Positions 13,520-33,068 of a DNA stretch of 64,000 nucleotides are shown here, piece by piece (position 1 is the stretch's first letter; each line of letters starts with the position of its first letter). The notes below the pieces were generated by a model, which saw nothing but the letters and a program-made list of their open reading frames with translations, did no database searches and was not told where the DNA came from. Both the position numbers and the translations under genes were made by a program. Source of the stretch: an uncultured Gammaproteobacteria bacterium (lineage in GTDB: Bacteria > Patescibacteriota > Patescibacteriia > Magasanikbacterales > UBA10003); assembly GCA_964365025.1 (NCBI GenBank), contig CAYIOJ010000001.1, positions 42,475-106,474 of the forward strand. The letters are read 5' to 3'.

Positions 13520-13556
13520 AAGCTCAAATATTAATGTCTTTTGAGATAAAATTGTA

Positions 13557-18731: not shown

Positions 18732-19775
18732 CTAAAAAGAACCGTCAAATTTCTTAACATATTCTTCCGTTGGTTGAATCTCCTTCATCTGCGTTTGATT
18801 TTTACCAAGCACTTCCCAAACGGCCGAAACAATCTGGCCAGCTTGCGGGTAGAAAAATTCTTCCAATTTGTAGCTGGTGGGAGACGGTGATTCTGCCAAA
18901 CTTATCCGTTTAATCGGCGCTCGTAAATAAGACATGGCCTCCTCGGCCACGGTAGCGGCAATTTCGCTGGCCAGGCCGCACATTAAATGACCAGTATCAG
19001 CCACTACCAAATGACCGGTTTTTGTGACTGATGTCAAAACAGTTTGCTTATCCCACGGCTTTAAAGATCGCAAATCAATAATTTCCGCCTTTATTCCTTT
19101 TTCCGCCAAAATGGCGGCGGCTTTCATTGCTTCCAAAACCATCTGAGATATAGCGACGATAGTAACATCATCGCCTGATCTCATTATTTTGGCCGATCCC
19201 AAAGGAATGGTGTAATACTCTGTCGGAACGTCGCCAATTTCTTTATGCAACCAACGATGTTCTATAAAAATCACCGGACATTTTTCTTTAAAACTAGACA
19301 ACAGTAAGCCTTTCGCGTCATAAGGAGTAACTGGCATGACTACTTTTAATCCGGGTATATGCACAAATAATGATTGCAAACTTTGTGAATGTTGCGGCCC
19401 CTGGCCCCAGCCGCGGCCGATGATCGCCCGTAAAATAATCGGCGCGGACATCCGACCGCCATAAGTATAGCTCCATTTAGCCGCGTGATTAACGATTTGA
19501 TCCATGGCCAAAAGCATAAAATCATCACGCGCATATACCAGCATAGGGTGCATCCCCATCACGGCCGCGCCCAGAACCACGCCAGTTAAAGCATTTTCAG
19601 ACAGCGGCGTATCTTCCACTCTTTTTGAACCAAACTTCAAAAAGGCCTCGCGAGTGGTATTAAAAATACCAGCGGCGTCATCGACTCCCTCGCCTAACAC
19701 AAAAATTTCCGGCTGTCTCTCCATGGCGAGAACAATTGCTTCGCTAACGGCTTGGGCATAGGTAATCTCACGCAT
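18732..19775 (-). CDS. Alpha-ketoacid dehydrogenase / transketolase-like E1 component, beta subunit.
   Basis: N-terminal REAIxxAM-like MREITYAQAVSEAIVLAMERQPEIFVLGEGV. 347 aa with a C-terminal transketolase-C-like region. Confidence 0.65.
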   Translation of the reverse strand: MREITYAQAVSEAIVLAMERQPEIFVLGEGVDDAAGIFNTTREAFLKFGSKRVEDTPLSENALTGVVLGAAVMGMHPMLVYARDDFMLLAMDQIVNHAAKWSYTYGGRMSAPIILRAIIGRGWGQGPQHSQSLQSLFVHIPGLKVVMPVTPYDAKGLLLSSFKEKCPVIFIEHRWLHKEIGDVPTEYYTIPLGSAKIMRSGDDVTIVAISQMVLEAMKAAAILAEKGIKAEIIDLRSLKPWDKQTVLTSVTKTGHLVVADTGHLMCGLASEIAATVAEEAMSYLRAPIKRISLAESPSPTSYKLEEFFYPQAGQIVSAVWEVLGKNQTQMKEIQPTEEYVKKFDGSF

Positions 19776-19777
19776 AT

Positions 19778-20758
19778 CTAAACAGGATAAACAAATTTTA
19801 ATAAATCTTCTTGGCTGGGAAAAGGACTGTTTTTAGCAAAATTAACCGCCCCCTCAATCTCTTCTGACAAATCTTTGGTAATTTTATTCTTTTCGTCCAG
19901 AGAAAGGATTTGTTCACTCAAAAGATAATCCTCAAATGTTCTAACAGGACAATGCTTCATCCAGTCGCTAACTTCGCACGCCGGACGATGGCCATGCTCC
20001 TGGTCGCAATTAGGGCCAACATGCTCGCGCCAACGATAGGTGCGACACTCCAAAAGAGTCGGACCATTGCCAAAACGCGCCCGCGCTATCGCTTCCTGGC
20101 CTGCTTGATACACGGCCAAGACATCATTACCATCTACAGCCTGTCCGGGCATATTAAAGGCGGCGGCATGAGTAAAAATATCCATATTTTTGCGCCGCGC
20201 TTCCAGACGAGACAAAACCGCATAAAAATTATTTTCGCAAACAAAAACTATTGGTAAATTTTTTAAAGACGCGTAATTCAAGCTCTCAAAAAAAACGCCT
20301 TCGTCAGCTCCGCCATCGCCAAAAAAACTTATTGCCACTCTTTTTTCATCGCGTTTCTGGAAAGCTAACGCTGCTCCAGTTGCAATGGGAATAGTGCCGC
20401 CGACAATAGACGAAGCGGCTATAAAACCAGTCTGGGGAGCCGTCAAATGCATTGAACCGCCGATACCTCGGCTGCAACCAGTGACCTTGCCATAAAGTTC
20501 AGCCAGCATTTCTTTAATTGACCCGCCCATAGCCAAATAATGAGCATGACAGCGATGATGGCTGAAGACGGCGTCAGTCGGCCCCAAAAGTTGGCAAATC
20601 CCAGCGGCAATCGCTTCTTCGCCGATCGACAAATGAGTGGGACAACGCATCTCTTGTTCCGGATACAACTCAATAATCTTTTCGCTTACCAAACGGATCT
20701 TCAACATTCTATAATAAAGATCTTTTAAAATTTCCGGCAATACATTTTCAGCTTTCAT
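19778..20758 (-). CDS. TPP-dependent dehydrogenase E1 component, alpha subunit.
   Basis: TPP-binding GDGGADEG...NN motif (FFGDGGADEGVFFESLNYA...VCENN); 326 aa. Confidence 0.65.
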   Translation of the reverse strand: MKAENVLPEILKDLYYRMLKIRLVSEKIIELYPEQEMRCPTHLSIGEEAIAAGICQLLGPTDAVFSHHRCHAHYLAMGGSIKEMLAELYGKVTGCSRGIGGSMHLTAPQTGFIAASSIVGGTIPIATGAALAFQKRDEKRVAISFFGDGGADEGVFFESLNYASLKNLPIVFVCENNFYAVLSRLEARRKNMDIFTHAAAFNMPGQAVDGNDVLAVYQAGQEAIARARFGNGPTLLECRTYRWREHVGPNCDQEHGHRPACEVSDWMKHCPVRTFEDYLLSEQILSLDEKNKITKDLSEEIEGAVNFAKNSPFPSQEDLLKFVYPV

Positions 20759-20761
20759 ATA

Positions 20762-21856
20762 TTAAATAAAATTAACGTGTTCGGGCGGTTGATTTTTGAG
20801 CTGCCACAAAAAGCGATTGACTTCGTCCATCCGGCAATTATTACGGCATTCGGTGATATTAAAATTATCCTTCAACAAAGCCCAATTATTTTTTCTTTTT
20901 TCTCCTTCCCAAATTTCAACAAACGATTGCTGGTTGATGTTGCCGCAGTTGAATCGTTCATCGCTTAAAAAAGCGCTGCAACTGTATAAATCTCCGTTAG
21001 CCATAAGATAGGCCCAGAAAAACGGCGTGGCATGGCAGATTTGGTAAGATTTTTCTTGCGCGTCCCACTTTTTCATGGTGCGATCGCGGAAGATGGCGCT
21101 AAATTTATCATCGGATATTTTTTTTAATTCTTCCGCCAATCCTAAAAATGATTCGTATTTAATGTCTTCATAGCGCTTAGTCAAACTAAAATGATGTTGC
21201 GAGTACGGTTTGACGACAAAATAATCTAAACCAATTTCTTTCAACAGATTAGCTAAAGCTACGACCTCGTGCTTATTTTCTGGCAATAAAATCATCTGCG
21301 CTCCCAGTGTGCAATTAAGGCCTCCGGCCCTTTTGATTTCTACAGCTCTTTTCAAATTTTGAATCACGCGATGGAAATCATCCGATTGAGCGCGGTGGAT
21401 TTGTTGATATGTCTCGGGTGAGCCGGCATTTAAACTAACCTTAATCCAGGTGATTGAAGACAGAGCTTTTTGTAAAAATTTCTCTGAAAGCAGAACGCCA
21501 TTAGTTGTGTAGGAGACATCAATGCCGGAGGACTTCGCGTGATTGGTTAACTCAATAATTTGCGGATGCAACAAGGGTTCGCCTTCTCCGCCAAACATGA
21601 CGCTTTTGACTTTTTTCTCGCCCATTTGCGTCAAAGCGGATGTTAATTTTTCCGTATTTAAAAATACCGGTTTGTAGCCAATATAATCCACGGCGCAAAA
21701 AACACAACGATGATTGCAGGCGCCGGAAGGCGAAATTTCAATATAGATAGGATAAACTTTTTTGGCCTTTTCCCAGTCATCGCCGGCTTGCAGCCATTCA
21801 GCTACGCGCTCCGGATGATAAACTATTTTTTGGTTGTCTATACCGTATTTATCCAT
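20762..21856 (-). CDS. Radical SAM enzyme (paralog of 16921..18024).
   Basis: SPSGACNHRCVFCAV (Cx3Cx2C), GGEGEPLL SAM motif, C-terminal cysteines CSAFLSDERFNCG...CRNNC, ends ...VNFI. Confidence 0.6.
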   Translation of the reverse strand: MDKYGIDNQKIVYHPERVAEWLQAGDDWEKAKKVYPIYIEISPSGACNHRCVFCAVDYIGYKPVFLNTEKLTSALTQMGEKKVKSVMFGGEGEPLLHPQIIELTNHAKSSGIDVSYTTNGVLLSEKFLQKALSSITWIKVSLNAGSPETYQQIHRAQSDDFHRVIQNLKRAVEIKRAGGLNCTLGAQMILLPENKHEVVALANLLKEIGLDYFVVKPYSQHHFSLTKRYEDIKYESFLGLAEELKKISDDKFSAIFRDRTMKKWDAQEKSYQICHATPFFWAYLMANGDLYSCSAFLSDERFNCGNINQQSFVEIWEGEKRKNNWALLKDNFNITECRNNCRMDEVNRFLWQLKNQPPEHVNFI

Positions 21857-21994: not shown

Positions 21995-22690
21995 CTAACT
22001 AAGGTTTTCAATCAGGGCGGGAACATTGATTTCCCGCCAGTCAAAAAAGACGCGACAGGCGCCTGCATCAACAAGAGCGCCGACAGTTGAACCGCGAATG
22101 ACGACTGGCATGCCGACGGCCTTGGAGCCGGCAGCAATAGCGGCCTGCACGCCGCGAGGTGAATCCTCAAAGACGAGCTGTTGGCGCGGATCGATTCCCA
22201 TGATCGAGGCCGTTTTCAGGAAAACATCAGGCGCCGGTTTGAGCCGCTTAACATGCTCACGAAGAATGATGCTGTCCCTTCCGAAATGGTCCAAAAGGCC
22301 AGACCCTTCCAGAAGCCGCCCCGCCTCCTGTTCTGGCGTGAGCGAGCCAATGGAGACGGAGATATTCAAGCCACGGACAGTTTTCAGGAAGCCGAAGAAT
22401 CCTGGCCTAGCAGAAATCGCCGTACCCGCAAGGTTCTCTCTGTAGTAATGCTCCGTGCGTTGACGAATATAATCTGACGATATTGACTTCTGCTGTTCAG
22501 CATTCAACAGATTCCAGATGTCCACGTGGACATCTGGCCCGCCAATGAAACGAGGAAGTCTAACCAAGGCCTCTTCATACGAAAGATCGATTCCGACCTC
22601 CTTTGCTGAAGCAAGGTGCGCGGCATGATGAGCCGCCTCAACATCAACGACAGTACCTTCTAGGTCAAAAGCGATGCCACGAATTAACAT
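21995..22690 (-). CDS. HAD-superfamily hydrolase (beta-phosphoglucomutase-like subfamily IA).
   Basis: IRGIAFDLEGTVVD (DxxGT motif I) and C-terminal FEDSPRGVQAAIAAG (motif III/IV). The region is GC-rich. Confidence 0.55.
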   Translation of the reverse strand: MLIRGIAFDLEGTVVDVEAAHHAAHLASAKEVGIDLSYEEALVRLPRFIGGPDVHVDIWNLLNAEQQKSISSDYIRQRTEHYYRENLAGTAISARPGFFGFLKTVRGLNISVSIGSLTPEQEAGRLLEGSGLLDHFGRDSIILREHVKRLKPAPDVFLKTASIMGIDPRQQLVFEDSPRGVQAAIAAGSKAVGMPVVIRGSTVGALVDAGACRVFFDWREINVPALIENLS

Positions 22691-22694
22691 GGTA

Positions 22695-23579
22695 CTACTC
22701 TCCTTTCTTGAGGGCGAGCCAAAGACTCGACCCTACGATGAGGGTTCCGCCGATCACTACTTGTGTCGTCAGTGGTTCGCGCAGGATCAAAAACGCGTAC
22801 ACGATCGCAAAGACCGGTTCACTCTTCCCAAGAATTGAAACGTGCAGTGAACGCGTCTTGCTGATTCCGTAGTTGTGGATTCCGGAAGCAACGACAGCAA
22901 AGGCCAGGCCGAAACCGATGAGTGGAATGACGTCAGAACTCTGCAACTCTCCCAGTTTCATCCAAGGCGTGACGGCAAGGAGGAGCACGGTGCTCATCGC
23001 ATACCGCCAGAAGTTTACCGCGCTGATCGTAATGCCCCTATCTGGATTGAGAATCGTGCGATAAAGCACGATGAGAAAAGCGTAAAAAAGTCCGGAAATC
23101 ACGCCGAGCGTAATTCCCACTAGATGGGATTTCTCACCACTCGTTCCGAGCTGATTGCTGTAGAGCGCCACAATGCCCGCAAGAGAAACAACGAGCGCCA
23201 CCCATTCATCTTTACGCGTACGCTCACGTAGTAGAAGCGGTGCGAGAATCAAAAGAAAAATCGAAACCGATTGATGTGCTACTGCCGCGTTCGCCACCGA
23301 TGTCATGGTGAACGCGAAAAAGTAACACAAGTCGTTCATGGTTGCTGTTACAGCAAGCGTGGCAAGAAGAATGTAATCGCGTTTCGTAAGGCGGGGCATT
23401 CCCTGGAGGCGGGCAATGATAAAAAAACTTATCATGCCGACCACCTGAAATATGCCCAGAAATGTGAGAGGAGAAATCTGCGGGCAGAGCCGCAAAAAAA
23501 GTGAGTATGACCCAAATATCGCCATAGCAACTAGTACGAGTAGGTCACCGGAAAATGTCCGCTTGGTTTCCATGGCCAA
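22695..23579 (-). CDS. DMT/EamA-family transporter.
   Basis: 294 aa, 10 predicted TM helices in a two-repeat arrangement; GC-rich codon usage. Confidence 0.45.
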   Translation of the reverse strand: MAMETKRTFSGDLLVLVAMAIFGSYSLFLRLCPQISPLTFLGIFQVVGMISFFIIARLQGMPRLTKRDYILLATLAVTATMNDLCYFFAFTMTSVANAAVAHQSVSIFLLILAPLLLRERTRKDEWVALVVSLAGIVALYSNQLGTSGEKSHLVGITLGVISGLFYAFLIVLYRTILNPDRGITISAVNFWRYAMSTVLLLAVTPWMKLGELQSSDVIPLIGFGLAFAVVASGIHNYGISKTRSLHVSILGKSEPVFAIVYAFLILREPLTTQVVIGGTLIVGSSLWLALKKGE

Positions 23580-23648
23580 CTTCCTTTCTAACTAAAATGT
23601 CAAAGAGCCATCGTTACTTTATAGCACAATCATATCTGAACGTCAAGT

Positions 23649-23678
23649 AAAAAAACCGCCTTGAGTTATTCAAAGCGG
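23649..23678 (-). terminator. Rho-independent terminator for the 23698..24459 gene (minus strand).
   Basis: On the minus-strand RNA, CCGCUUUG/CAAGGCGG forms an 8-bp stem (one G-U wobble) with a 7-nt loop, followed by a U7 run (A-run 23649-23655 on the plus strand). Confidence 0.5.
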
Positions 23679-23697
23679 CAGGGACTGTCTTTTGGTT

Positions 23698-24459
23698 TTA
23701 ATGGACCGAAACGCCAAAGTCTCCAAATCTGGCTCGGGCAACCAAGTAGAGAGACAGCGGCGTGACCGGACCATACTTGTCCCTCTCACAAAACATGACC
23801 TGGATAACATTGTTAGGAGTAAGTTGGAAGGGCAAAACCTCGCCTTCCCACTTGTCTTCGGCCTTCTCCCAACTGACCTTGAGTTCACCAATGGTTTCCT
23901 TAAGGGAAACCATGACGACCAGTGTATGGTGGTACTTGGCCGCTGGCGGGCTAACTTGGACCAACCCAAGCACCTTGAGCTGGGAGAATCCTACAGTTAC
24001 CCCAAACTCTTCCAGCATTTCTTGGACGATGTGGTGGAAAAAACGAGGATGAGGGGGCGTACAGCCCGGCACCCTAATTCCGCCTCCGACAGTGGCGGCA
24101 ATGGAGGCCACTGGCGCCTGCAAAGCCACAAAGCCATCAGAAGTGATTGGTATCATAGCCACGCCCAACCAACCCAGCACCATCCCTTGCTTGTAGTCAG
24201 ATGACACAACATCAAGAAGCAATCTTGCGCCATCATCAGAAAATTGGAAACCATCCAATCTCACGGTCGCGCCTGCAAAAGCCTTGGGATTCTTTGCGAG
24301 GACATCTTGCCAAGACGCCTCAATCCTGGCTTGCTGATTAGGGTCAATGAGAGTTGCTCCCCCTTTTTCAGTAAAGACGACATCATCTATCGAAAACGAT
24401 CTGTCAACAAGTATCTGCACCAGCGGATCACTGAACCGCAGCGTCGTTTCAGCATACAC
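23698..24459 (-). CDS. Hypothetical protein with a degenerate Nudix-like box (Nudix-fold candidate).
   Basis: 253 aa, GC-rich. The segment GGGIRVPGCTPPHPRFFHHIVQEMLEEFGV matches the second half of the Nudix box (REUxEExGU as QEMLEEFGV) but lacks the first conserved Glu. Confidence 0.25.
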   Translation of the reverse strand: MYAETTLRFSDPLVQILVDRSFSIDDVVFTEKGGATLIDPNQQARIEASWQDVLAKNPKAFAGATVRLDGFQFSDDGARLLLDVVSSDYKQGMVLGWLGVAMIPITSDGFVALQAPVASIAATVGGGIRVPGCTPPHPRFFHHIVQEMLEEFGVTVGFSQLKVLGLVQVSPPAAKYHHTLVVMVSLKETIGELKVSWEKAEDKWEGEVLPFQLTPNNVIQVMFCERDKYGPVTPLSLYLVARARFGDFGVSVH

Positions 24460-24469
24460 GGGACACCTC

Positions 24470-25093
24470 CTAATTGATCACTTGTGAAAACATGCCAAGC
24501 CCGAACTCTTTATAGCTAACGAAATCATGCCTGGCAATGTCTCTAGCCACGCCGGTCAGGAAAAAGCCGGGTTTGTCAATATTTTCGGCCCACTTTTGCA
24601 GATGTGCTTCCACTTGCTCGCATCTGGTCCAACCCTTATTCCCAGCCGTGACCACGAGATGCACTGGCGCTCTATAACGCCAGAGTTTGTCAGCGTCACG
24701 CACCAAGGCATCTTCCATAGCGTAAAAGCCCTGACGAGTGTCGTGCTGAGCGATAATGGTAAGAATGGCGCCGATACAGGCCGGGCTGTAATTGACCGAA
24801 CACAGAATCTTTAGCGCCAAATCCAGAGCATAGATTTGATGCTCCAAGCGCGCCGTATACTCCGCCTCTTTACTCGGCGGATTGTAGGCGATGAGGAGCT
24901 TGTCGGCCGGCATCATGCTCCAACCAATATCGTGGAACATAATGGCCGGAACCACAATTCGCGCCTTGGCCGAAGGGATTCGCGCCAAAAGCCGCAGGGC
25001 ATAACCAGTAGCAATGGCCGCGTGTCCCGTGTCGTTGCGCTTGTCTTGATACGGCAGAGCCAATTTCCAGATTTGTGCGAATTTTGTTTTCAC
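24470..25093 (-). CDS. HD-domain metal-dependent phosphohydrolase.
   Basis: GHAAIATGYALRL ... IMFHDIGW ... RDADKL gives the H...HD...D pattern; 207 aa. Confidence 0.55.
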   Translation of the reverse strand: MKTKFAQIWKLALPYQDKRNDTGHAAIATGYALRLLARIPSAKARIVVPAIMFHDIGWSMMPADKLLIAYNPPSKEAEYTARLEHQIYALDLALKILCSVNYSPACIGAILTIIAQHDTRQGFYAMEDALVRDADKLWRYRAPVHLVVTAGNKGWTRCEQVEAHLQKWAENIDKPGFFLTGVARDIARHDFVSYKEFGLGMFSQVIN

Positions 25094-25155: not shown

Positions 25156-25181
25156 AAAAAAAGTCAAGACGCGGCTTGACT
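25156..25181 (-). terminator. Rho-independent terminator ending the minus-strand heptose / radical SAM operon.
   Basis: 7-bp stem agtcaag/cttgact with loop acgcgg. On the minus-strand RNA it is followed by U7 (plus-strand A-run 25156-25162), 34 nt downstream of the 25215 stop. Confidence 0.55.
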
Positions 25182-25214: not shown

Positions 25215-26648
25215 TTATTTATCTTCTGTGCTAGAAAAAATATTTTTGGACTTGAACAATTTAGGGAAGAAAGTCTGCAAACCGAAATAAATATCCAAAA
25301 ACAAAGTTTTATTTTTAAGAGACAACCACACTCTTCTTAAAAGATAACGCGGATTAAAATAAAAATTTTGATAATACTTTTCTAATATCTCATGTGACAA
25401 GTTGGGATGATTGTAAATATCACCGGCCTGATGAAGGTTGTAAAGACGCCAGTCGCGACTCTTAATCAACCCCTGACTCTCACATTGAGAGTACAACTCC
25501 GTGCCTGGGAAAGGAACGGTGATGGTAACTTTGGCATAATCCGGTACCAAATCCAAGGCCAGTTTAGTGGTCTTCTTCAAACTTTCTTCGGAATCAGCCG
25601 GCAAACCAAACATGAAAAAGCCAATACTTTCCAGTCCCGCCTTTCTGACCAGCTTCATAGCGGCATAACTATCTTCAACTTTAATATTTTTGCAAATGGA
25701 ATCCAGACTGGCCTGATCACCGGATTCAAATCCAATTGATACTTGATATAGCCCCGCCCGCTTGGCTAAATTGAGAAACTCCAAATCCATTGAATCAACT
25801 CGCAATCCGGCCGACAGTGTCCATGGAAATTTCAAATTTCTTTGAATTATCAGTTCACAAATTTTTTTCGCCCTCGCCATATCTGTAGTGAACATATCAT
25901 CAAGAATACGGATCTCCCTTATGCCGCAATTTAACATATATTCAATTTCATCTACCGCCAACTCAACCGAACGGGCGCGAAAACGCCGGCCAAAAATATT
26001 TTTGTTACAAAAAGTACAGCCAAAAACGCAGCCGCGACTGCTCATATAATTACACATCGGACTCAAACGATTTAAAACGCGCGGACATTTATATCTTTTT
26101 AGGTCAAACAAATCCAACGCTGGGAATGGCAGCCAATTCAAATCGTTAGTCGGAAAACGCGGCGGGGTGTTTAAAATTTGTCCTTCTTCTTTATAATAAA
26201 TACCGGCAACTTCTTTTAATGGCTTTTCTTTTAAAATATCAACCAGTGTCAGTTCACCCTCGCCATAAATTAAAATTTCAAAATGAGAATCTCGCAATGT
26301 TTCAACGGGTAGTGCGGTGGCATGTGGTCCGCCAATAATCAATTTTGTTCTATTGCCCAAGTGATCTTTAATAATTTTACTTAAAGTGACGGCTTCAAAA
26401 AAAAGCGGGGTGGTGGCGGTTAAGCCAATAAATCGCGGATTATATTCGTCCAATTTTTTGTGCAAAAGCCGATATGGATTAAGCTCAATGCCTAAATCAA
26501 TAATTTTAACCTTAAATCTTTCTTTACGCGCCGCCGCGGCGAGATAAGCAAAAGACAACAAAGGATAATTTTGCGTCGCGGCATTAATCCTGGTGCCGGA
26601 ATAGGAAGAAAAAGCCGATGGTAAGTTGATCAATAATAAATCCACCAT
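25215..26648 (-). CDS. Cobalamin-binding radical SAM enzyme (class B).
   Basis: N-terminal B12-binding-like domain, then MSSRGCVFGCTFCNK (Cx3Cx2C); 477 aa. Confidence 0.65.
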   Translation of the reverse strand: MVDLLLINLPSAFSSYSGTRINAATQNYPLLSFAYLAAAARKERFKVKIIDLGIELNPYRLLHKKLDEYNPRFIGLTATTPLFFEAVTLSKIIKDHLGNRTKLIIGGPHATALPVETLRDSHFEILIYGEGELTLVDILKEKPLKEVAGIYYKEEGQILNTPPRFPTNDLNWLPFPALDLFDLKRYKCPRVLNRLSPMCNYMSSRGCVFGCTFCNKNIFGRRFRARSVELAVDEIEYMLNCGIREIRILDDMFTTDMARAKKICELIIQRNLKFPWTLSAGLRVDSMDLEFLNLAKRAGLYQVSIGFESGDQASLDSICKNIKVEDSYAAMKLVRKAGLESIGFFMFGLPADSEESLKKTTKLALDLVPDYAKVTITVPFPGTELYSQCESQGLIKSRDWRLYNLHQAGDIYNHPNLSHEILEKYYQNFYFNPRYLLRRVWLSLKNKTLFLDIYFGLQTFFPKLFKSKNIFSSTEDK

Positions 26649-26650
26649 AT

Positions 26651-27286
26651 TTAATCAGTTCTAATTTCACCTTCTATTTTATCAACTGCGGCTGAAAAAA
26701 CATCCACAGCCGCATATTTATTATTAGTCAGTGATAAAACCTTAACCTTTTCAAATTCATTAATATATTTTTCGTCTTTTATAATAATTCCACAACCGCC
26801 GGCATTAACGCCCATTGCAGCATCATCAAAACGATTGCCAATGGCAAAAATACGATGTTGCGTGTAATCAATACCAAGCTCCTTGGCTGCTTTATCTAAC
26901 ATCCCTATGCTGGGCTTACGCAAAGACGTGGCGTCCTTGACCACCCAAGGCGTGTTTAAATCTAGGCCTTGTTTAGAGGCCCAATCAAAATCAACAAAAG
27001 GGCAAATTTGCCAATTATCAATAATAGCGCCAGCGGCGCGCAATAATTTATCAATTTCCTTGTTAATATCCAAAATCGTTTCTAAACTAAAATAGCCGCG
27101 AGCCACTCCAAACTGATTGCTCGCGACTATGACTTTGGCGAAAAGATTTAACCTTTTAATTCCCTCAACCACCCCGTCTAACAATCGCAATTGTTTGTGC
27201 CAATCCGGGTCGCGGCCAAACCAGCCGGGATCAAAATTAATCGTGCCGTCGCGATCCAAAATCACCAAAATTTTGTTCCGCAACAT
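26651..27286 (-). CDS. gmhB: HAD-IIIA hydrolase, D-glycero-D-manno-heptose 1,7-bisphosphate phosphatase-like.
   Basis: ILVILDRDGTIN (the GmhB DRDGT motif) and the GNRFDD motif IV. Confidence 0.55.
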   Translation of the reverse strand: MLRNKILVILDRDGTINFDPGWFGRDPDWHKQLRLLDGVVEGIKRLNLFAKVIVASNQFGVARGYFSLETILDINKEIDKLLRAAGAIIDNWQICPFVDFDWASKQGLDLNTPWVVKDATSLRKPSIGMLDKAAKELGIDYTQHRIFAIGNRFDDAAMGVNAGGCGIIIKDEKYINEFEKVKVLSLTNNKYAAVDVFSAAVDKIEGEIRTD

Positions 27287-27294
27287 AGATAAAT

Positions 27295-27924
27295 TTAAAC
27301 AAGATTATTAAGCGGGCCGCCGCCATTTCTTTCATTGGTGGTGATAAATTGATTTCTATAAAAAACAATCTGCTCCAAAATGCAATCGCAAATAAGCAAA
27401 TGAGTGGATTCAACTTTATTAAAATGCTTGCTCGCCACGTGAAAATTAAGATTACCGACTTTGCGCAAACGATTGGTCGGTTCAAAACCGGAAAAAGTAA
27501 TAATATGACAACCGCAACGACGCGCTTCTTCTGTTGCCAAGACAATATTTTCGGAATTTCCTGACGAACTTATGGCCACTAAAACATCACCGGCATCGGC
27601 AAACATATTGATTGGTCTAGCGAAGACATGGCTGTAACCAAAATCATTACTAACGCAAGTCAAAAGCGCGTCGTCGCTAAAACTAACGCCTCTAACTTTT
27701 CCGGTAAACCAAAAATCCAAGGCCTTGTGATTAGCCACCGCGGCGCTGCCGCCATTGCCGATAAAAATCACCTTTTTCCCTTTGGAATTGGAAGAAATTA
27801 TTAAATCGGTGGCCTCGCGAATACCCAGACGAAAATCCATGGTTTGGCTGTTCAAGTCAGTAACTTGAGTGCCTAAAAATAAATCATGAATGTTCTGTAT
27901 GTAATTATGCACTAATTCATCCAT
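27295..27924 (-). CDS. gmhA: SIS-domain sedoheptulose-7-phosphate isomerase.
   Basis: KVIFIGNGGSAAVANH is the characteristic GmhA GNGGSAA motif. 209 aa, SIS-domain length. Confidence 0.7.
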   Translation of the reverse strand: MDELVHNYIQNIHDLFLGTQVTDLNSQTMDFRLGIREATDLIISSNSKGKKVIFIGNGGSAAVANHKALDFWFTGKVRGVSFSDDALLTCVSNDFGYSHVFARPINMFADAGDVLVAISSSGNSENIVLATEEARRCGCHIITFSGFEPTNRLRKVGNLNFHVASKHFNKVESTHLLICDCILEQIVFYRNQFITTNERNGGGPLNNLV

Positions 27925-27936
27925 ACTAGATAAAAA

Positions 27937-29472
27937 TTATTTTAACAAAGCGCCGATCGATTTTAAAAATATTGAAGCGTCAATTGCCGATTTGTTGCCA
28001 ACTATCTGCACTTTAAAAGCGCCGGCCAAATTACCGATAAAACCAACTAAATCCATGGGGAACCCGGCGGCTACGCAAGGCGAAGTAACGGCTAGAAAAG
28101 CATCACCGGCGCCAATACGATCTACCACTTTATTTGATAGCACCGGCGCGTAAGAAAATCCTTCACGGGCGCAATAAGACATCGAACCGCGGTGACCCAA
28201 GGTAACAATCGCCTTTTCCGTTTGCGATTTGGCCACCACTTCTTTAATTAAATCTTCGACCGGCGAAAATTTTTGATGAGTCGCCAATCTAAGCTCCTGC
28301 ACATCAAGGCAGATATAATCGGCGCGCGGATATTTGGTAATTAAATTGAATCCATAATTAGCGCTGTTAGTTTGAGTGTTAACTGCCAAAAATTTGGCTT
28401 TTTGACATATTAAGTCAATTAAATCCTGATCAAGGAAACCGTGCGCATAATCCAATACTATCACTAAATCATATTCAGGAACAGCGTTGGACAAATAATT
28501 TTTAATCTGGTCGCGCACCGCCGGTGGCAAACTGCTATCGTCAAAATAATAAATTTCAAATAATTTATTCAAAAAGGCCGCATCCACAAATCGCCGCTTA
28601 ACAATACTGCATGTATCGTCGCGGTAAAAAAATTTAGTACCGATGTTTGGCTTCAAACTTCTGGCGATAAAATCGATTTTAGAATCCTTGCTGCCAAGAC
28701 AAGTAACCAAATGAACATCGTCGCAAAAACCGGCCAAATGATTAACTAGAGCCAAAGCGCCACCGGCGTAAGCCTCTTCATTGAGGTATTTCATCACCAC
28801 CAAATTCTCTTTGCCGGCTTTGCCCAAGGGCGAACAAAAATGATATTCATCAATCACCGCTTCGCCAACCACCAAAACTTTCATTTTTTTCAATTGCTGG
28901 AATCTTTGTTTAATTTCGTCAATGGAATACTTTTCTTTTATTTTCTGTAAAAAAACGCGCACCGGTTCCGGATATATATTAAAATGGCTGTTAAGCAAAT
29001 TGGAAGAACTGAAAGTAATTTCTTCGGTAAAATAAATTTCTCCGCCGACTGATTTTATTGCTTCATTTTCTTTGTATAAGCCCCTGGTCGGATCATTGAG
29101 ACCAACGCGATATTCGCGGTCTTTGACGTAAAAATTCGGTTTTAATTTCTTGATGGCCTCTACCGCGTTGGGCCACTGATTTATAGCGATGTAATCCACA
29201 CAGGCCAAAGAAGCAATGGTCTCGGCGCGCAAATCCGCGGTAAAAACCGGGCGTCCCGGTCCTTTATTCACATATTGATCCTGGGTGATAGTCACCACCA
29301 AAACATCAGCTGCTTTTTTAGCCGCTTCCAAATGCTTAATATGTCCCAAATGCATTAAATCAAAAACACCGTGGCAATGGGCAACGGTTTTGCCTTCGGC
29401 CTTTAAATTCTGGATAACTTCCGCCAGCTCATCCAAAGTTTTAATCTTGCTGTTGACCATAATGAGTAACAT
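27937..29472 (-). CDS. hldE: Bifunctional heptose-phosphate kinase / heptose-1-phosphate nucleotidyltransferase (HldE/RfaE-like) with inverted domain order (nucleotidyltransferase N-terminal, pfkB kinase C-terminal).
   Basis: N-terminal AHCHGVFDLMHLGHIKHL (HxGH cytidylyltransferase-like, as RfaE domain II). C-terminal pfkB signature DRIGAGDAF and ribokinase-like fold (as RfaE domain I). Confidence 0.6.
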   Translation of the reverse strand: MLLIMVNSKIKTLDELAEVIQNLKAEGKTVAHCHGVFDLMHLGHIKHLEAAKKAADVLVVTITQDQYVNKGPGRPVFTADLRAETIASLACVDYIAINQWPNAVEAIKKLKPNFYVKDREYRVGLNDPTRGLYKENEAIKSVGGEIYFTEEITFSSSNLLNSHFNIYPEPVRVFLQKIKEKYSIDEIKQRFQQLKKMKVLVVGEAVIDEYHFCSPLGKAGKENLVVMKYLNEEAYAGGALALVNHLAGFCDDVHLVTCLGSKDSKIDFIARSLKPNIGTKFFYRDDTCSIVKRRFVDAAFLNKLFEIYYFDDSSLPPAVRDQIKNYLSNAVPEYDLVIVLDYAHGFLDQDLIDLICQKAKFLAVNTQTNSANYGFNLITKYPRADYICLDVQELRLATHQKFSPVEDLIKEVVAKSQTEKAIVTLGHRGSMSYCAREGFSYAPVLSNKVVDRIGAGDAFLAVTSPCVAAGFPMDLVGFIGNLAGAFKVQIVGNKSAIDASIFLKSIGALLK

Positions 29473-29519
29473 CTACGAATAAACTGATATTAGCAAATTC
29501 ACCTCTGCCGGTCAAGAGG

Positions 29520-32072
29520 CTATTTGGAGTTAAAGAATAGTCTTATCAAAGATAAATAGCTTTGTTGCCACAAGCTGGGATAATAAAATTCAATCTCGTT
29601 TTTACCCGGAGGAACTAAAACCGCCTGATAAACATAATTAGCGGAATATAATGGCGCCGGTTGGCCATTTACCTTTGCCCGCCAAAACGGCTCTTTGGTC
29701 TCGCTAAAAACCAACCAACGATAATTCTTAGTATCTGTACCCAATTTTAGATAACCATTGGCATATTCTTTCATATCAATTTTATCTTTCTCGTAAAACT
29801 TGCTGACCGAACTTAGAGCCAAATCACTATAGCTGGAAGCCTCAATTAATGTCAACTTCTGAAAATCATCAATTTTTTTAAATTCTTCAAAAACCGCTTC
29901 GTCACCCTTGGCTTCGGTCAACTTTACTTCTTTGGCAAAATACCATCTTGGTTGAAAAAATGGATTTTCATAAACATATATGGGCACTCGATTGTCCAGC
30001 GTCCAACTGGTAAAAATTGGCTGGCCGCGTTGGGGTAATTCAAAAAGCGATGTGACATATTTAACATTTAACATGCCTAAAAATTTCCAACTGGAAGTGG
30101 TGGAAAATTCATTTAAGAATTCGGAAAAAGGCATGTCCTGAAGTTTAATATCCTTAAACTCCGGTTGGCGCCGCGCCAAAGTTCGGACTTTGGGCCAACG
30201 TCCCCAGACCAACGGCTCGCCATTAAAAACCGCGTCAAAATCATACATAATGGTACGATTATGCGAGACCAACTCTCTTCTAAACCAATGTTGATTTTGA
30301 AAATCCTGGAAATTAATATCCCGATATTTGTCTGCCAATTCGGCAAAATATTGGTCTGGCGTATAGACAAATAAACGATATGGCGTTAAATTTGATTGTC
30401 CCGAATACAGCGGCAATTTGGTGGAAGAATAATCATTTATAGAATGTAAAAATTTGGCGGTTTCCGGCAATTCGGTAAAATAACGCTTCTCCGGACCGGT
30501 CACCTTGCCGCTCCATGGCAAAACCAAACCAAGAATAATCATTATTAAAACTGCCGTTTGTAACTTCTGCTGGCGTGTTTTAAACCAGGGAAAACAACCG
30601 AGGGTTAATACCACCGCCGACACAATCCACAAAATCAACATCAATAATACTTTGTCGTTTTTAAAAGAAAGCTCATCAACAAGCGAGCCAGCCATTTGAG
30701 AAACAATAAACTTATAATAATCCGGCGACCGTGGCAAAGAATGAGTGGCGGCCGCGCTATAACGCCCGCTACCGTATTGAATCAACCGTGTCTTTACTTC
30801 TATGTTATAGACAGTCAAAAAGACAGTCACTCCCAAAAACAAAGCCAAAAAGAACCACATTGGAACAAGAAAAAAAATACTTCGCCGACTTTGCCAAAAT
30901 TTCTTTAAAGCGTCAACACCAAACCCAGCCAACAAGGCCAAAGCAAAAACAGTTATAAACGACCATTTAAATTGCCACCGAAATTTTTCCATCAGCGGCA
31001 GTTTATGAACCAGCCAATAAACCGGCGAATTTGTAATGCTCACCAAAAGTGTAAACAAACCCAAACCGCCAAAGAATTTCGCGTAAGGACTTTTTAAGCC
31101 ACCAAAAAATATAGCAACCAATATCAAAAGCAAAGACATGACGCCGACAAACAAATCATAACTAACGCCCATTTGTATTGGTAAAAGCTGGCCATAAAAA
31201 ACCTCAATATGCGGATTGAACATTTGGATCAAATGAGCCAGGCCTGTCCCATAATTATTGTCGCCCACATCTAACGAGCCGGTTCGTGTAGACAAACTGA
31301 TAAAATAAAAAACCGGCAACAGCCAAGGCAATAAGACTAAAAAAGCGGAAAAAAAAGCTAAACCAACGGTAAAAATTTTTAAAGCAACTTCTTTCCATTT
31401 GAGCCGATGCGCAAAACAAAGGAAAATAAAAAAGAAACTTAAACAAAATAAAAAATAGATTGGTAACTCCGGCGAGCCGCCAATAAAGGAATACGCTGTC
31501 AATAAAAATAAAATGAAATACCATTTTTTTTGACCATTAAAAATCTTTAAAAGAGATAAAAAAAGCAACGGTATAACCGGGTAAAGTGTGGCCCAAACGG
31601 TTAATTCCGTGTATTTTACGACAATCCCGCTAAAACAGAAAGTCAGAGCGGAAACCAAAGAAGCTGAGCGAGACATCTGTAAGTTTCTTGCTAACCAATA
31701 AATTGAGGCCCCGCCCAAAAACAACAAAATAATATTCAGCCAGTGAAAAGCTAAAAAAACCGGCAAATATTTAAAAACCAACAAAAAAATAGGATTTAAA
31801 AAACCATTCCCGGTTAAAGTGCTGGGATAGCCGGAATCAAATTGCGCCCACCAATTGGGCAATATGCCCAAATTAGCAATAAAATATTTTATACCGTAAG
31901 AAAAAAATAATTGAATATGCCCAACTCCGTCGCCTCGAAAAGATACTTGACCAATCAAAATCGGCCAGTACACAAAGGCGAGGCTAATCAACAACAAAAT
32001 CAAAGCTAAAACAGTTCTAAACCATTCCAACCTAAACGCTTTTCCTAAAAATTTGGTGACAAAAGGCAACAT
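29520..32072 (-). CDS. Very large polytopic membrane protein (850 aa), YfhO-like / GT-C-type putative glycosyltransferase.
   Basis: About 13 N-terminal TM helices, an internal TM cluster and a ~350-aa C-terminal extracytoplasmic domain. Architecture and size are typical of the YfhO family. Confidence 0.35.
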   Translation of the reverse strand: MLPFVTKFLGKAFRLEWFRTVLALILLLISLAFVYWPILIGQVSFRGDGVGHIQLFFSYGIKYFIANLGILPNWWAQFDSGYPSTLTGNGFLNPIFLLVFKYLPVFLAFHWLNIILLFLGGASIYWLARNLQMSRSASLVSALTFCFSGIVVKYTELTVWATLYPVIPLLFLSLLKIFNGQKKWYFILFLLTAYSFIGGSPELPIYFLFCLSFFFIFLCFAHRLKWKEVALKIFTVGLAFFSAFLVLLPWLLPVFYFISLSTRTGSLDVGDNNYGTGLAHLIQMFNPHIEVFYGQLLPIQMGVSYDLFVGVMSLLLILVAIFFGGLKSPYAKFFGGLGLFTLLVSITNSPVYWLVHKLPLMEKFRWQFKWSFITVFALALLAGFGVDALKKFWQSRRSIFFLVPMWFFLALFLGVTVFLTVYNIEVKTRLIQYGSGRYSAAATHSLPRSPDYYKFIVSQMAGSLVDELSFKNDKVLLMLILWIVSAVVLTLGCFPWFKTRQQKLQTAVLIMIILGLVLPWSGKVTGPEKRYFTELPETAKFLHSINDYSSTKLPLYSGQSNLTPYRLFVYTPDQYFAELADKYRDINFQDFQNQHWFRRELVSHNRTIMYDFDAVFNGEPLVWGRWPKVRTLARRQPEFKDIKLQDMPFSEFLNEFSTTSSWKFLGMLNVKYVTSLFELPQRGQPIFTSWTLDNRVPIYVYENPFFQPRWYFAKEVKLTEAKGDEAVFEEFKKIDDFQKLTLIEASSYSDLALSSVSKFYEKDKIDMKEYANGYLKLGTDTKNYRWLVFSETKEPFWRAKVNGQPAPLYSANYVYQAVLVPPGKNEIEFYYPSLWQQSYLSLIRLFFNSK

Positions 32073-32084
32073 AACAATGTTTAA

Positions 32085-33068
32085 TTAAGATAAATTTTTA
32101 AACCACTCATTAGTGGCCTCGGCAATCGTCGCCGGCGTCCAAACCGGCGCCTGTTGCCAATAATCAATATCATCCAACAAAATCTTGATTCCCTCCTCCA
32201 AACTTACCTGTGGCTTCCAGCCAAGCATTTTTATAATTTTGTTGATATCGGCGTGCGTGCAATCCGGTTCACCTGGACGTTTGGGAATATGAACGACTTC
32301 ACCGACTAGCAAATTAACAATTTCGTTAATGCTGCGAGGATGGCCGGTGCCAACATTAAATGCTTCACCGGTTATATCTGATTCCGCGGCCTTAATAAAG
32401 GCCTTGGCCACATCGGTGACAAAGGTAAAATCGCGGGCCTGACTGCCGTCGCCCACCACTGTAAAAGGATGCCCGTGTATTTTTTGTGCCAAAAAAACAC
32501 CAAAGACAGCGCCGTAAGTGCCGGAAGTTCGTGAACGCGGTCCGTAAACATTAAAAAGACGCATGGCCACTAATGGCATTTTATAAACCTTTGACCAGTG
32601 TAACGCACTCTGCTCGCCCAGCCATTTAGTCAAAGCGTAAGGATATTGCGGCCGAATTTCTGCCGTTTCCGCTGTCGGATAATAATCCGGAATGCCATAA
32701 CAAGAAGACGAAGCGGTGTAAATGAAACGTTTGACATTAGCCAAACGAGAGGCCTCCAAAACCATGGCTGTGCCATTGACATTGGAATCAAAATATTTTA
32801 TAGGCTCAGTAATTGATGGAACAATATCAGCCAAAGCGGCCAAGTGAAATACCCAATCAATGCCTTCAAAATACTGCTTAATTTTTTCTAAATTAGTTAT
32901 ATCAATTTGAACCAATCTTAAATCGTTATTGCCTCTAAGATGGGTCAAATTTTCCTGGCGGCCTGTAGAAAAATTATCCAAAACTATTACTGAATGGCCG
33001 TCAGCTAGGAGTTGGGTAACTAGATGGCTGCCAATAAAACCGGCACCACCTGTAACCAAAGTTCTCAT
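32085..33068 (-). CDS. NAD-dependent nucleotide-sugar epimerase/dehydratase (GalE/WbpP/HldD-like).
   Basis: [36 protein letters not shown]; 327 aa. Confidence 0.55.
   Translation of the reverse strand: MRTLVTGGAGFIGSHLVTQLLADGHSVIVLDNFSTGRQENLTHLRGNNDLRLVQIDITNLEKIKQYFEGIDWVFHLAALADIVPSITEPIKYFDSNVNGTAMVLEASRLANVKRFIYTASSSCYGIPDYYPTAETAEIRPQYPYALTKWLGEQSALHWSKVYKMPLVAMRLFNVYGPRSRTSGTYGAVFGVFLAQKIHGHPFTVVGDGSQARDFTFVTDVAKAFIKAAESDITGEAFNVGTGHPRSINEIVNLLVGEVVHIPKRPGEPDCTHADINKIIKMLGWKPQVSLEEGIKILLDDIDYWQQAPVWTPATIAEATNEWFKNLS

Follow-up and report, generated by a model that had tools for sequence, protein, structure and literature searches.

The stretch of DNA analysed here (hereafter the window) comprises 64,000 nucleotides (nt) of contig CAYIOJ010000001.1 and holds, at positions 25215-29472, four adjoining genes that are predicted to supply an activated sugar of the heptose type. 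In order of transcription, these genes encode a bifunctional nucleotidyltransferase-kinase (NT-kinase), a GmhA-like isomerase with a sugar isomerase (SIS) domain, a GmhB-like phosphatase of the haloacid dehalogenase subfamily IIIA (HAD-IIIA), and a class-B radical S-adenosylmethionine (SAM) enzyme with a cobalamin-type domain (B12 radical SAM). With a probability of roughly 55%, we propose that this operon turns a ketose phosphate into a nucleotide-activated heptose, which is then tailored by the enzymes of an associated gene cassette. A nucleoside diphosphate (NDP)-heptose-type product is still the best reading because HldA is the nearest match to the kinase by sequence as well as by predicted structure. 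Functional linkage of the operon genes is supported by the short gaps between them (12, 8 and 2 nt), by a gene order that is kept in the related contigs L001, L090 and L091, and by the fusion of SIS and HAD. Judged from their sequences, the enzymes are relatives that would work like heptose enzymes while standing outside the curated families.

A nucleotidyltransferase-kinase with permuted domains

The NT-kinase (27937-29472, minus strand; 511 amino acids, aa) contains the Pfam domains CTP_transf_like at residues 34-144 and PfkB at residues 198-493, the full extents being about 20-160 for the HldC-like nucleotidyltransferase and about 190-495 for the HldA-like PfkB kinase. In BLASTP comparisons, residues 9-121 match residues 321-435 of Escherichia coli K-12 HldE, its adenylyltransferase domain (29% identity, E 6e-14), and residues 187-494 match HldE 1-301, its kinase domain (22% identity, E 3e-9). 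The initial annotation of this DNA had described the nucleotidyltransferase as N-terminal and the kinase as C-terminal, the reverse of E. coli HldE, and the Pfam boundaries together with these alignments confirm that the domain swap is real. The best-scoring specific families for the two domains are rfaE_dom_I (TIGR02198, 97.1 bits, cut-off 345) and rfaE_dom_II (TIGR02199, 90.7 bits, cut-off 181.5), and the full-length HldE model NF008454 gives 126.3 bits (cut-off 521). HldA is the best PDB match of the kinase domain by sequence and also takes the top seven places (E 6e-21 to 2e-19) in a Foldseek search with an AlphaFold2 (AF2) model of the protein (predicted local distance difference test, pLDDT, 82), in which other PfkB kinases appear at 4e-17 or weaker.

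Both active-site signatures are intact, with the HxGH residues H34, G35, H41, G43 and H44 and the GAGD residues G454, A455, G456 and D457 invariant in 84 orthologues. According to two commentaries on the work of Tang et al. (2024), the hallmark motif of heptose nucleotidyltransferases is (F/L)XXGXSTT, and Arg at position 5 confers CTP/UTP promiscuity (PMC11461863, PMC11573728). Throughout the window's family this hallmark is replaced by F-T-[DE]-E-I-T-F-S-S-[TS], without the Gly and with Phe at position 5, the register having been aligned by eye. Compared with HldE, or with the split HldA and HldC of Burkholderia, the NT-kinase thus has two homologous domains that share HxGH and GAGD, a best structural match to HldA and a similar linkage to GmhA-like and GmhB-like genes. 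It differs in its reversed order, in an identity of 22-29%, in the replaced nucleotidyltransferase motif and in its partners, which are a GalE-like short-chain dehydrogenase/reductase (SDR), radical SAM enzymes and thiamine pyrophosphate (TPP) enzymes rather than lipopolysaccharide (LPS) heptosyltransferases.

A cytidylyltransferase origin of the N-terminal domain was also considered. The single best PDB match of the full protein is ethanolamine-phosphate cytidylyltransferase (ECT; 57 bits), with CCT and TagD matching as well, and 'FTEEITFS' aligns without gaps with the cytidylyltransferase pattern 'RTEGISTS'. However, the ECT score sums two repeats, and per domain HldC (41.8 bits) exceeds ECT (31.7 bits). 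The glycerol-3-phosphate cytidylyltransferase family, membership of which would, according to the initial annotation, have spoken against a heptose role, scores 32.7 bits against 90.7 bits for rfaE_dom_II; a TagD-type enzyme was therefore rejected as the best match, and it survives only as part of a low-probability alternative (see below).

The isomerase and the phosphatase

The SIS protein (27295-27924, minus strand; 209 aa) has Pfam SIS_2 (residues 33-145) as its sole domain. Its best-scoring specific family is gmhA (TIGR00441, 93.8 bits, cut-off 209.45), its best PDB matches are GmhA (E 3e-21), and it is 31% identical to E. coli K-12 GmhA (BLASTP, E 1e-23). KpsF/GutQ, which had been named at the outset as the isomerase that this gene should not be, is ruled out by the length of the protein, by its lack of CBS domains and by the best match to GmhA. 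With GmhA it shares the single SIS_2 domain of about 200 aa, the GNGGS motif, a Ser-rich phosphate loop ('SSSGNS', conserved among the orthologues) and the zinc-ligand His (H64 of Burkholderia pseudomallei, Bp), which is kept in 49 of 49 orthologues. In characterised GmhA proteins the proposed catalytic base is a Glu (Bp E68; Mycobacterium tuberculosis, Mtb, E65/66), accompanied by a catalytic or zinc-binding Gln (Bp Q175, Mtb Q173) that has been called 'fully conserved' (PMC7705670). The window's family differs at both positions, the Glu being replaced by Asp in 49 of 49 orthologues and the Gln by Glu in 48 of 48. In addition, Bp D61 is mostly Ile or Val, and the position of Bp H183 is Asp in the window protein and His in most of the family. 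The protein belongs to a distinct GmhA-like subfamily.

The HAD-IIIA protein (26651-27286, minus strand; 211 aa; motif 'LDRDGTIN') scores above the cut-off for the superfamily model TIGR01662 (HAD-SF-IIIA, 62.8 bits, cut-off 44.6), and its best-scoring specific family is GmhB (NF006506, 84.9 bits, cut-off 178). GmhB structures 4pnh and 3l8e are among its PDB matches, and it is 27% identical to E. coli K-12 GmhB (BLASTP, E 5e-14). Aligned to E. coli GmhB, it does not contain the zinc-binding loop CxH...CxC; the segment 'ICPFVDFDWASKQ...SLRKP' is without the His and CxC of the E. coli sequence 'CPHHPQG...CDCRKP'.

The distribution of these genes was examined by comparing the window proteins with 83 related loci (tblastn), and presence is counted below either among the 46 loci with at least 8 kb downstream or among the 31 loci for which 8 kb was available on either flank. 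A SIS gene lies directly downstream of the NT-kinase gene in 41 of 73 loci and is present in 21/31. In L001, SIS and HAD-IIIA are fused in one continuous open reading frame (ORF) of 412 aa (9524-10762), an arrangement seen once. The HAD-IIIA phosphatase is present in only 4/46 loci and is a lineage-restricted addition. In the Nitrospirota loci L003 (10181-11232) and L005 (11183-12198), the SIS gene is followed by two conserved ORFs, each of about 175 aa and devoid of Pfam domains; this pair at the HAD position could be a non-homologous phosphatase replacement.

The initial annotation had spoken of a complete NDP-heptose pathway. Each protein is indeed nearest to the corresponding heptose family, whereas completeness in the canonical sense is contradicted by scores below the cut-offs, by the altered GmhA residue pair, by the missing zinc loop and by the altered nucleotidyltransferase motif.

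The putative transcription unit and its host

The four ORFs lie at the coordinates that had been annotated, all on the minus strand, within an array of co-directional genes that takes up about 50 kb of this strand. Between the YfhO-family gene upstream and the NT-kinase gene there is a 47-nt gap that holds a promoter-like site (TTGACC-17-TAATAT with TG; 29487-29515, minus strand), and 34 nt past the stop codon of the B12 radical SAM gene, in a 121-nt gap, a terminator-like hairpin AGTCAAGCCGCGTCTTGACT is followed by TTTTTTT (25162-25181, minus strand). It should be noted that both are consensus matches only, and that 27 promoter-like consensus sites were seen in the region against 22 expected. 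Their placement nevertheless fits a discrete four-gene transcription unit, since the promoter-like and terminator-like matches fall in the only two real gaps. The order NT-kinase, SIS, HAD, B12 radical SAM is found again in three independent related contigs, L001, L090 and L091.

The gene at 29520-32072 (minus strand) encodes a YfhO-family membrane glycosyltransferase of the GT-C type (Pfam YfhO, 57 bits) and lies between the SDR and NT-kinase genes. L090 has a YfhO protein of 83% identity at the equivalent position, which in most other loci has no YfhO, and the gene is an insertion in the window's lineage. On the other side of the operon, a block of four genes with a higher GC content (21995-25093, minus strand; GC 0.46-0.51 against about 0.40 in the flanks) splits the activation operon from a tailoring module; the compact relative L091 is without it. 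This block encodes two proteins that we call unk207 and unk253, an EamA transporter and a HAD-IA phosphatase. Homologues of unk207 and unk253 occur in L090, L091 and L001, and a Pfam search gave no match for either, even at E<=1; assignments as an HD-phosphohydrolase (unk207) and a Nudix protein (unk253), made by motif inspection, were dropped for want of Pfam support at that threshold. Rfam and tRNA scans of the window found nothing.

At the edge of the window, a DUF5667 gene encodes a protein that shares 91% identity with one from Candidatus Magasanikbacteria, and all other labelled DUF5667 matches are from Magasanikbacteria or Patescibacteria. This supports a Magasanikbacteria-like host from the Candidate Phyla Radiation (CPR), in line with the non-LPS, CPR-like envelope that had been suspected, and with such a host the operon product would therefore not be destined for LPS. 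The cluster contains GT-C enzymes of two families, YfhO and PMT_2, which fit a surface glycan or protein glycosylation. The initial suggestion of an S-layer or protein glycan agrees with these enzymes as to the general destination, and the acceptor itself is something that we infer.

A large family with the swapped order

The swapped order had been noted as the reverse of the canonical one, with a survey of its frequency proposed. When a survey was run, it turned out to be common, and the architecture is therefore less surprising than first stated. A word-indexed search with the NT-kinase returned thousands of matches, of which the best 120 were inspected; all of these have PF01467 followed by PF00294, at about 55% identity and 505-520 aa, with labelled members from Nitrospirota, Chloroflexota and Elusimicrobiota. 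Some members are already annotated by JGI as 'rfaE bifunctional protein nucleotidyltransferase chain/domain'. An exhaustive HMMER scan over 1.84 billion cluster representatives (50% identity clusters) gave a family of 1,157 representatives at E<=1e-30, the best 150 of which are all collinear over their full length, with identities down to 34%. A scan of GTDB with one genome per species confirmed at least 565 NT-kinase loci in more than ten phyla overall, covering Omnitrophota, Elusimicrobiota, Dehalococcoidia, Anaerolineae, Nitrospirota, Rokubacteria, Brocadiales, Acidobacteria, Verrucomicrobia and one bin labelled Nitrosotalea. The swapped order thus represents a large, old and uncharacterised family rather than a rarity.

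An exact-sequence look-up of the window NT-kinase returned no record. According to commentaries on the published classification, heptose nucleotidyltransferases fall into mono-domain, kinase/nucleotidyltransferase and tri-domain isomerase/kinase/nucleotidyltransferase classes (PMC11573728). No description of the nucleotidyltransferase/kinase order was found in the literature searched, in which this classification is represented by its commentaries.

Several variants of the architecture deserve mention. A second subfamily with the same order and only 27% identity (524 aa) occurs in Verrucomicrobia (L086, 10173-11747), and the family members P0360 and P0374 (699 and 764 aa) have additional domains at the N or C terminus. 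The 200-kb contig L076, labelled as the archaeon Nitrosotalea sp., contains SDR, NT-kinase, SIS, a B12 radical SAM and the alpha subunit of an E1-type TPP enzyme, and this is either an inter-domain transfer or a binning error.

A GalE-like reductase and the conserved cassette

The most constant partner of the NT-kinase family is a GalE-like extended SDR, an orthologue of which (at least 50% identity, typically about 65%) lies directly upstream of the NT-kinase gene in 57 of 74 loci. Neither this SDR nor the downstream module of SPASM radical SAM, TPP enzyme and GT2 figured in the initial annotation. In the window this gene (32085-33068, minus strand) encodes a protein with a Pfam Epimerase domain (205 bits) and 'SSSCYG' and YxxxK motifs. 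It scores 185 bits with the galE model against 134.7 bits with HldD (TIGR02197, cut-off 274.6), its best PDB matches are of the GalE/WbpP type (192 bits), with HldD not among the 60 matches listed, and it is 28% identical to E. coli HldD. On the score below the cut-off, the GalE-type PDB matches and this identity, HldD was ruled out. Enzymes of the dTDP-glucose 4,6-dehydratase type carry a 'TDE' motif, and such an activity was judged unlikely since the window protein has 'SSSCYG' instead.

Counted among the 31 loci, the SDR is present in 28, any TPP enzyme in 23 (E1 alpha/beta in 14, transketolase-like in 9 and acetolactate synthase (ALS)-like in 1), a family 2 glycosyltransferase (GT2) in 21, a SPASM radical SAM in 16, and any B12 radical SAM in 14. 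The corresponding counts among the 46 loci are 31 for GT2, 22 for a SPASM radical SAM orthologous to that at 20762-21856 and 20 for E1 alpha. The cassette is seen without interruption in L091, where the order is SDR … NT-kinase, SIS, HAD, B12 radical SAM, SPASM radical SAM, E1 alpha, E1 beta-GT2 fusion and SPASM radical SAM. In L090, synteny with the window is almost complete over 22 kb.

The proposed tailoring module

The module downstream of the operon begins with a SPASM radical SAM gene (20762-21856, minus strand; assigned by Pfam). In the PDB its product is closest to DesII, BlsE and viperin, three enzymes that abstract hydrogen from sugars linked to nucleotides, and by analogy the window enzyme probably acts on an NDP-sugar. 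A second SPASM radical SAM gene (16921-18024, minus strand) is a paralogue of the first at 29% identity and has orthologues of its own at about 70%. Between them lie the genes for a TPP enzyme resembling the E1 component of pyruvate dehydrogenase (PDH), with alpha (19778-20758) and beta (18732-19775) subunits on the minus strand, and for a small GT2 (18021-18725, minus strand; 234 aa; assigned by Pfam). The TPP enzyme matches E1_dh (241 bits) and Transket_pyr/Transketolase_C and scores under the cut-offs of the PDH models (E1 alpha 315 bits, E1 beta 314 bits); a scan that covered window ORFs of at least 150 aa gave no lipoyl, E2 or E3 domain. The PDB relatives of the GT2 include DPMS, ArnC and GtrB, which makes it a candidate polyprenyl-phosphate sugar transferase.

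In L091, E1 beta and GT2 are joined in one continuous 580-aa ORF (14595-16337). Across the related loci, three non-orthologous types of TPP enzyme share one slot, namely E1 alpha/beta, transketolase-like and, in L001, ALS-like enzymes, which we read as selection for a chemistry rather than for one protein. There are precedents for such chemistry: AviB1/AviB2 (E1-like) and YerE (ALS-like) put C-acetyl branches on NDP-keto-sugars (PMC4753412). Likened by gene type, the window shares with AviB1/AviB2 (avilamycin) and Pau11/Pau12 (paulomycin) an E1 alpha/beta pair without E2 or E3 in a sugar-nucleotide cluster, and the ALS-like enzyme of L001 holds the same slot as a YerE-type enzyme (yersiniose) would. 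These systems, however, act on sugars derived from 6-deoxyhexose in antibiotic or O-antigen pathways and, unlike the window, are without SPASM or B12 radical SAM enzymes and without a heptose-type activation module. Likewise, the co-occurrence of the small GT2 with YfhO and PMT_2 recalls the three-component extracytoplasmic glycosylation systems of GtrB/CsbB and YfhO, from which the window differs in that its GT2 has 234 aa and its donor sugar would be unusual. No GtrA-like flippase was identified in the cluster.

The module also occurs with other NDP-sugar genes and with no NT-kinase within 8 kb (L087 and L089), and it would therefore have a role in tailoring, not in precursor supply. A TPP enzyme serving mainly precursor supply was judged less likely than one serving tailoring, on account of the E1 beta-GT2 fusion and of modules without SIS or kinase.

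Genomes of Brocadiales (L087 and L015) carry the module of SPASM radical SAM, E1, GT2 and B12 radical SAM. The S-layer O-glycan of Kuenenia stuttgartiensis contains an unidentified 174-Da residue, read as a dimethylated deoxyhexose, and heptose is not reported for it (PMC5088730). By arithmetic, 174 Da is also the residue mass of a two-carbon-branched dideoxyhexose.

The cobalamin radical SAM enzyme

The last gene of the operon (25215-26648, minus strand; 477 aa) encodes an N-terminal cobalamin-type Rossmann domain and a radical SAM core (Pfam B12-binding, 52 bits; Radical_SAM, 75 bits), and the CxxxCxxC cysteines C206, C210 and C213 are invariant in its family. The best NCBIfam matches are HpnJ (191 bits) and BchE (174 bits), both far under the cut-offs, and the best solved relative is the sugar diol-dehydratase AprD4. 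A Foldseek search with its AF2 model (pLDDT 90) retrieved AprD4, MgmA, TsrM, CysS and OxsB at similar E-values; the model aligns over its full length with AprD4, TsrM, CysS and OxsB, and identity to any solved member is about 20%.

The initial annotation had taken this gene to suggest C-methylation of the heptose or its nucleotide. Class-B radical SAM enzymes do include sugar C-methylases, such as GenK and MoeK5, and the methylases MgmA, TsrM, CysS and TokK are among the closest structural relatives. The non-methylases AprD4, HpnJ, BchE and OxsB nevertheless score similarly, the best family and structure matches (HpnJ, BchE and AprD4) are themselves non-methylases, and neither family scores, PDB sequence searches nor AF2/Foldseek comparisons tell a methylase from a non-methylase here. 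A review that discusses GenK and MoeK5 treats HpnJ, BchE and OxsB as non-methylases and regards function in this class as hard to predict (PMC9204698). C-methylation is thus one possibility only, alongside a radical rearrangement or a dehydration.

The relatives of the B12 radical SAM form a distinct family of 470-490 aa with 50-70% identity and members in Parcubacteria, Tagabacteria, Verrucomicrobia, Omnitrophota, Brocadiales, Chloroflexota and Elusimicrobia. With AprD4 (a diol dehydratase), HpnJ, GenK and MoeK5 the window enzyme has in common the cobalamin-type Rossmann domain, the CxxxCxxC barrel and a sugar-pathway context, and it often adjoins a small GT2, like HpnJ in the HpnI/HpnJ pair, in which HpnJ contracts the ring of a glucosamine installed by the GT2; it differs from them in belonging to this separate family.

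That the gene adjoins the heptose-type genes in a four-gene unit, as had been pointed out, is correct; it is, however, no general partner of them, since orthologues of the window enzyme (at least 50% identity) occur in only 3/46 NT-kinase loci. In each of four distant contexts its neighbours include a small GT2, a SPASM radical SAM and an E1 alpha/beta pair. Two of these contexts, in Brocadiales (L087) and Elusimicrobia (L089), have other NDP-sugar genes (SDR and DegT aminotransferases) and no NT-kinase within 8 kb. Because the contexts of the B12 radical SAM include such loci, it travels with the tailoring module, of which it is an accessory, and only in the window's clade does it close the activation operon. 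The B12 radical SAM of L090 (12794-14236) is 92% identical to that of the window, against 68-84% for the flanking genes and 72% for the NT-kinase, and this contrast points to either mosaic recombination in the cluster or an unusually strong constraint on the radical SAM enzyme.

Proposed pathway and alternative explanations

In the pathway that we propose, the SIS protein would isomerise a ketose phosphate, most likely sedoheptulose-7-phosphate, the C-terminal PfkB domain of the NT-kinase would phosphorylate C1, the HAD-IIIA enzyme would take off the distal phosphate, and the N-terminal nucleotidyltransferase domain would form the NDP-sugar, following the logic of GmhA, HldA, GmhB and HldC. 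The GalE-like SDR, to judge from its co-occurrence, would epimerise or transiently oxidise the NDP-sugar. One or two SPASM radical SAM enzymes would act on it, as their relatives do, and the TPP enzyme would add a two-carbon branch to a keto-sugar after the precedents of AviB1/B2 and YerE. The B12 radical SAM, recruited into the activation operon in this lineage, would modify the sugar by C-methylation, radical rearrangement or dehydration. The small GT2 would then hand the product on, probably to polyprenyl phosphate, and the GT-C enzymes (YfhO and PMT_2) would move it to a surface polymer or protein of the LPS-less CPR host.

The alternative that survives best is the canonical one, in which the operon makes ADP-D-glycero-D-manno-heptose and the class-B radical SAM C-methylates this product or its nucleotide for use in S-layer or protein glycans. 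Four tightly linked and seemingly co-transcribed genes, with activating enzymes that are all best matched by heptose enzymes, would agree with it, as would the GT-C enzymes of the cluster; moreover, Phe rather than Arg precedes 'SS[ST]' in the nucleotidyltransferase, so that the STTR5 sign of CTP/UTP promiscuity is absent. We nevertheless regard this explanation as unlikely. All scores fall below the cut-offs, catalytic and hallmark residues are altered, and the SDR, the SPASM radical SAM enzymes and the TPP enzyme, which are all more constant partners than the B12 radical SAM, are left without a place. The C-methylation step, for its part, would depend on an enzyme with orthologues in 3/46 loci whose family also occurs with no NT-kinase within 8 kb.

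A second alternative starts from the lincomycin pathway, where an isomerase, a kinase, a phosphatase and a nucleotidyltransferase act on octulose-8-phosphate on the route to GDP-octose. Here the TPP enzyme would come first, building for example octulose-8-phosphate from hexose-6-phosphate and a two-carbon donor, and the product would be an NDP-octose or another non-heptose. The family-wide replacement of the GmhA catalytic residues and the altered nucleotidyltransferase motif would suit a different substrate, and a TPP enzyme accompanies the NT-kinase in most of the loci counted (23/31), in nine of them as a transketolase-like protein. The E1 beta-GT2 fusion, however, ties the TPP enzyme to the last step of the pathway, not to the first, and the module of TPP enzyme, radical SAM and GT2 occurs with unrelated NDP-sugar genes and without SIS or kinase; these two observations weaken the case for the TPP enzyme as supplier of a ketose phosphate. 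The kinase is, in addition, closest to the heptose-7-phosphate kinase HldA, and PDH-E1-type enzymes are not known to make ketose phosphates. On balance, we hold this explanation to be improbable.

The weakest alternative, which we consider very improbable, is that the N-terminal domain is a cytidylyltransferase of the TagD, TarI or ECT type making a CDP-alcohol or CDP-polyol for a teichoic-acid-like polymer decorated through YfhO, a family that is known from teichoic-acid glycosylation, for the cytidylyltransferase matches described above are outweighed by the rfaE_dom_II score, by an HldA-like kinase, and by GmhA-like and GmhB-like partners, fused in L001, that suit a heptose scheme.

Several observations also weigh against our preferred reading, that of a heptose-type activation followed by tailoring. 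The assignment of the substrate is weakened in that all components stay below the curated equivalog thresholds. The isomerase departs at its two catalytic positions from every characterised GmhA, the nucleotidyltransferase is without the Gly and STT of the published heptose motif, and the SDR partner is, by its sequence, GalE-like rather than HldD-like. With a HAD-IIIA gene in 4/46 loci, most carriers do not have the full set of genes for the four-step scheme. As for the tailoring steps, there is a single instance of the E1 beta-GT2 fusion, a transketolase-like enzyme in the TPP slot might supply the ketose phosphate instead, and none of the possible reactions of the B12 radical SAM is favoured by sequence or model. 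CPR bacteria, moreover, are not known to make cobalamin, which bears on the supply of the cofactor of this enzyme.

Potential significance

We tentatively suggest, as a possibility that is rather doubtful at present, that the cassette represents a widespread, uncharacterised pathway that remodels NDP-heptose into C-branched and/or C-methylated higher-carbon sugars of a new class, to be exported to the surface by a polyprenyl-phosphate GT2 and GT-C enzymes. The rebuilding would be carried out by two SPASM radical SAM enzymes, a TPP carboligase and a cobalamin radical SAM, and the carriers would include CPR, Omnitrophota, Elusimicrobiota, Chloroflexota, Nitrospirota, Brocadiales and other phyla, mostly uncultivated. 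A literature search for heptose in CPR bacteria, or for radical SAM enzymes with heptose glycans, found nothing relevant.

If true, this would open a new branch in the biochemistry of sugar nucleotides, one where a single sugar is the joint target of radical SAM and TPP enzymes. It would also extend heptose-type activation beyond LPS-bearing bacteria and beyond the three published architectures, the fourth, permuted architecture being common in uncultivated lineages that include the ultra-small CPR bacteria, which depend on surface contacts with their hosts. The cassette would then predict surface sugars that are as yet unknown and new enzymes for forming C-C bonds on sugar nucleotides, and it consists of about nine soluble proteins on which the idea is testable. 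There is also a bearing on which organisms make innate-immune agonists of the NDP-heptose type, a link that is remote for an environmental CPR bacterium.

Other features of the glycan cluster

The glycan cluster as a whole (746-48211, minus strand) devotes about 45 kb to a set of genes that includes two TPP systems and eight radical SAM genes, which is strikingly many for a genome of small size. Three of the radical SAM genes are of the B12 type (9009-10670, 25215-26648 and 43740-45185), one is HpnJ/AprD4-like with no Pfam B12 match (41404-42759), and four are of the SPASM type (7971-8993 and 10667-11764, in addition to the two module genes at 16921-18024 and 20762-21856), all on the minus strand. 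The four B12-like proteins share only 21-29% identity with one another. At the end of the cluster, a second TPP enzyme that is ALS/YerE-like (TPP_enzyme_N/M/C) and a fusion of a NeuB (nonulosonate synthase-like) domain with a cupin are encoded at 746-2416 and 4319-5860, which suggests that the cluster houses a second unusual sugar pathway. Another set of genes looks like the entry to a CDP-hexose pathway: at 11793-13585, a glucose-1-phosphate cytidylyltransferase (273 bits, cut-off 300) adjoins an SDR of the 4,6-dehydratase type, with SPASM and B12 radical SAM genes on the flanks.

Beyond the cluster, a 1,084-aa ORF on the plus strand (52281-55535; GC 0.54) contains six Dicty_CTDC Cys-rich repeats (E 2e-30), and its product may be a surface protein; several long ORFs that overlap it on the minus strand are probably spurious. 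At 49912-52128 and 56279-58591 lie genes for two Wzy_C (O-antigen-ligase-like) proteins with fused TPR repeats, followed by a 1,258-aa ORF without a Pfam domain at 58678-62454. Within the cluster, genes for a UbiA-family prenyltransferase (46326-47252) and an AsnB-like glutamine amidotransferase (34835-36694) hint at a lipid-linked carrier and at the amidation of a uronic or acidic sugar.

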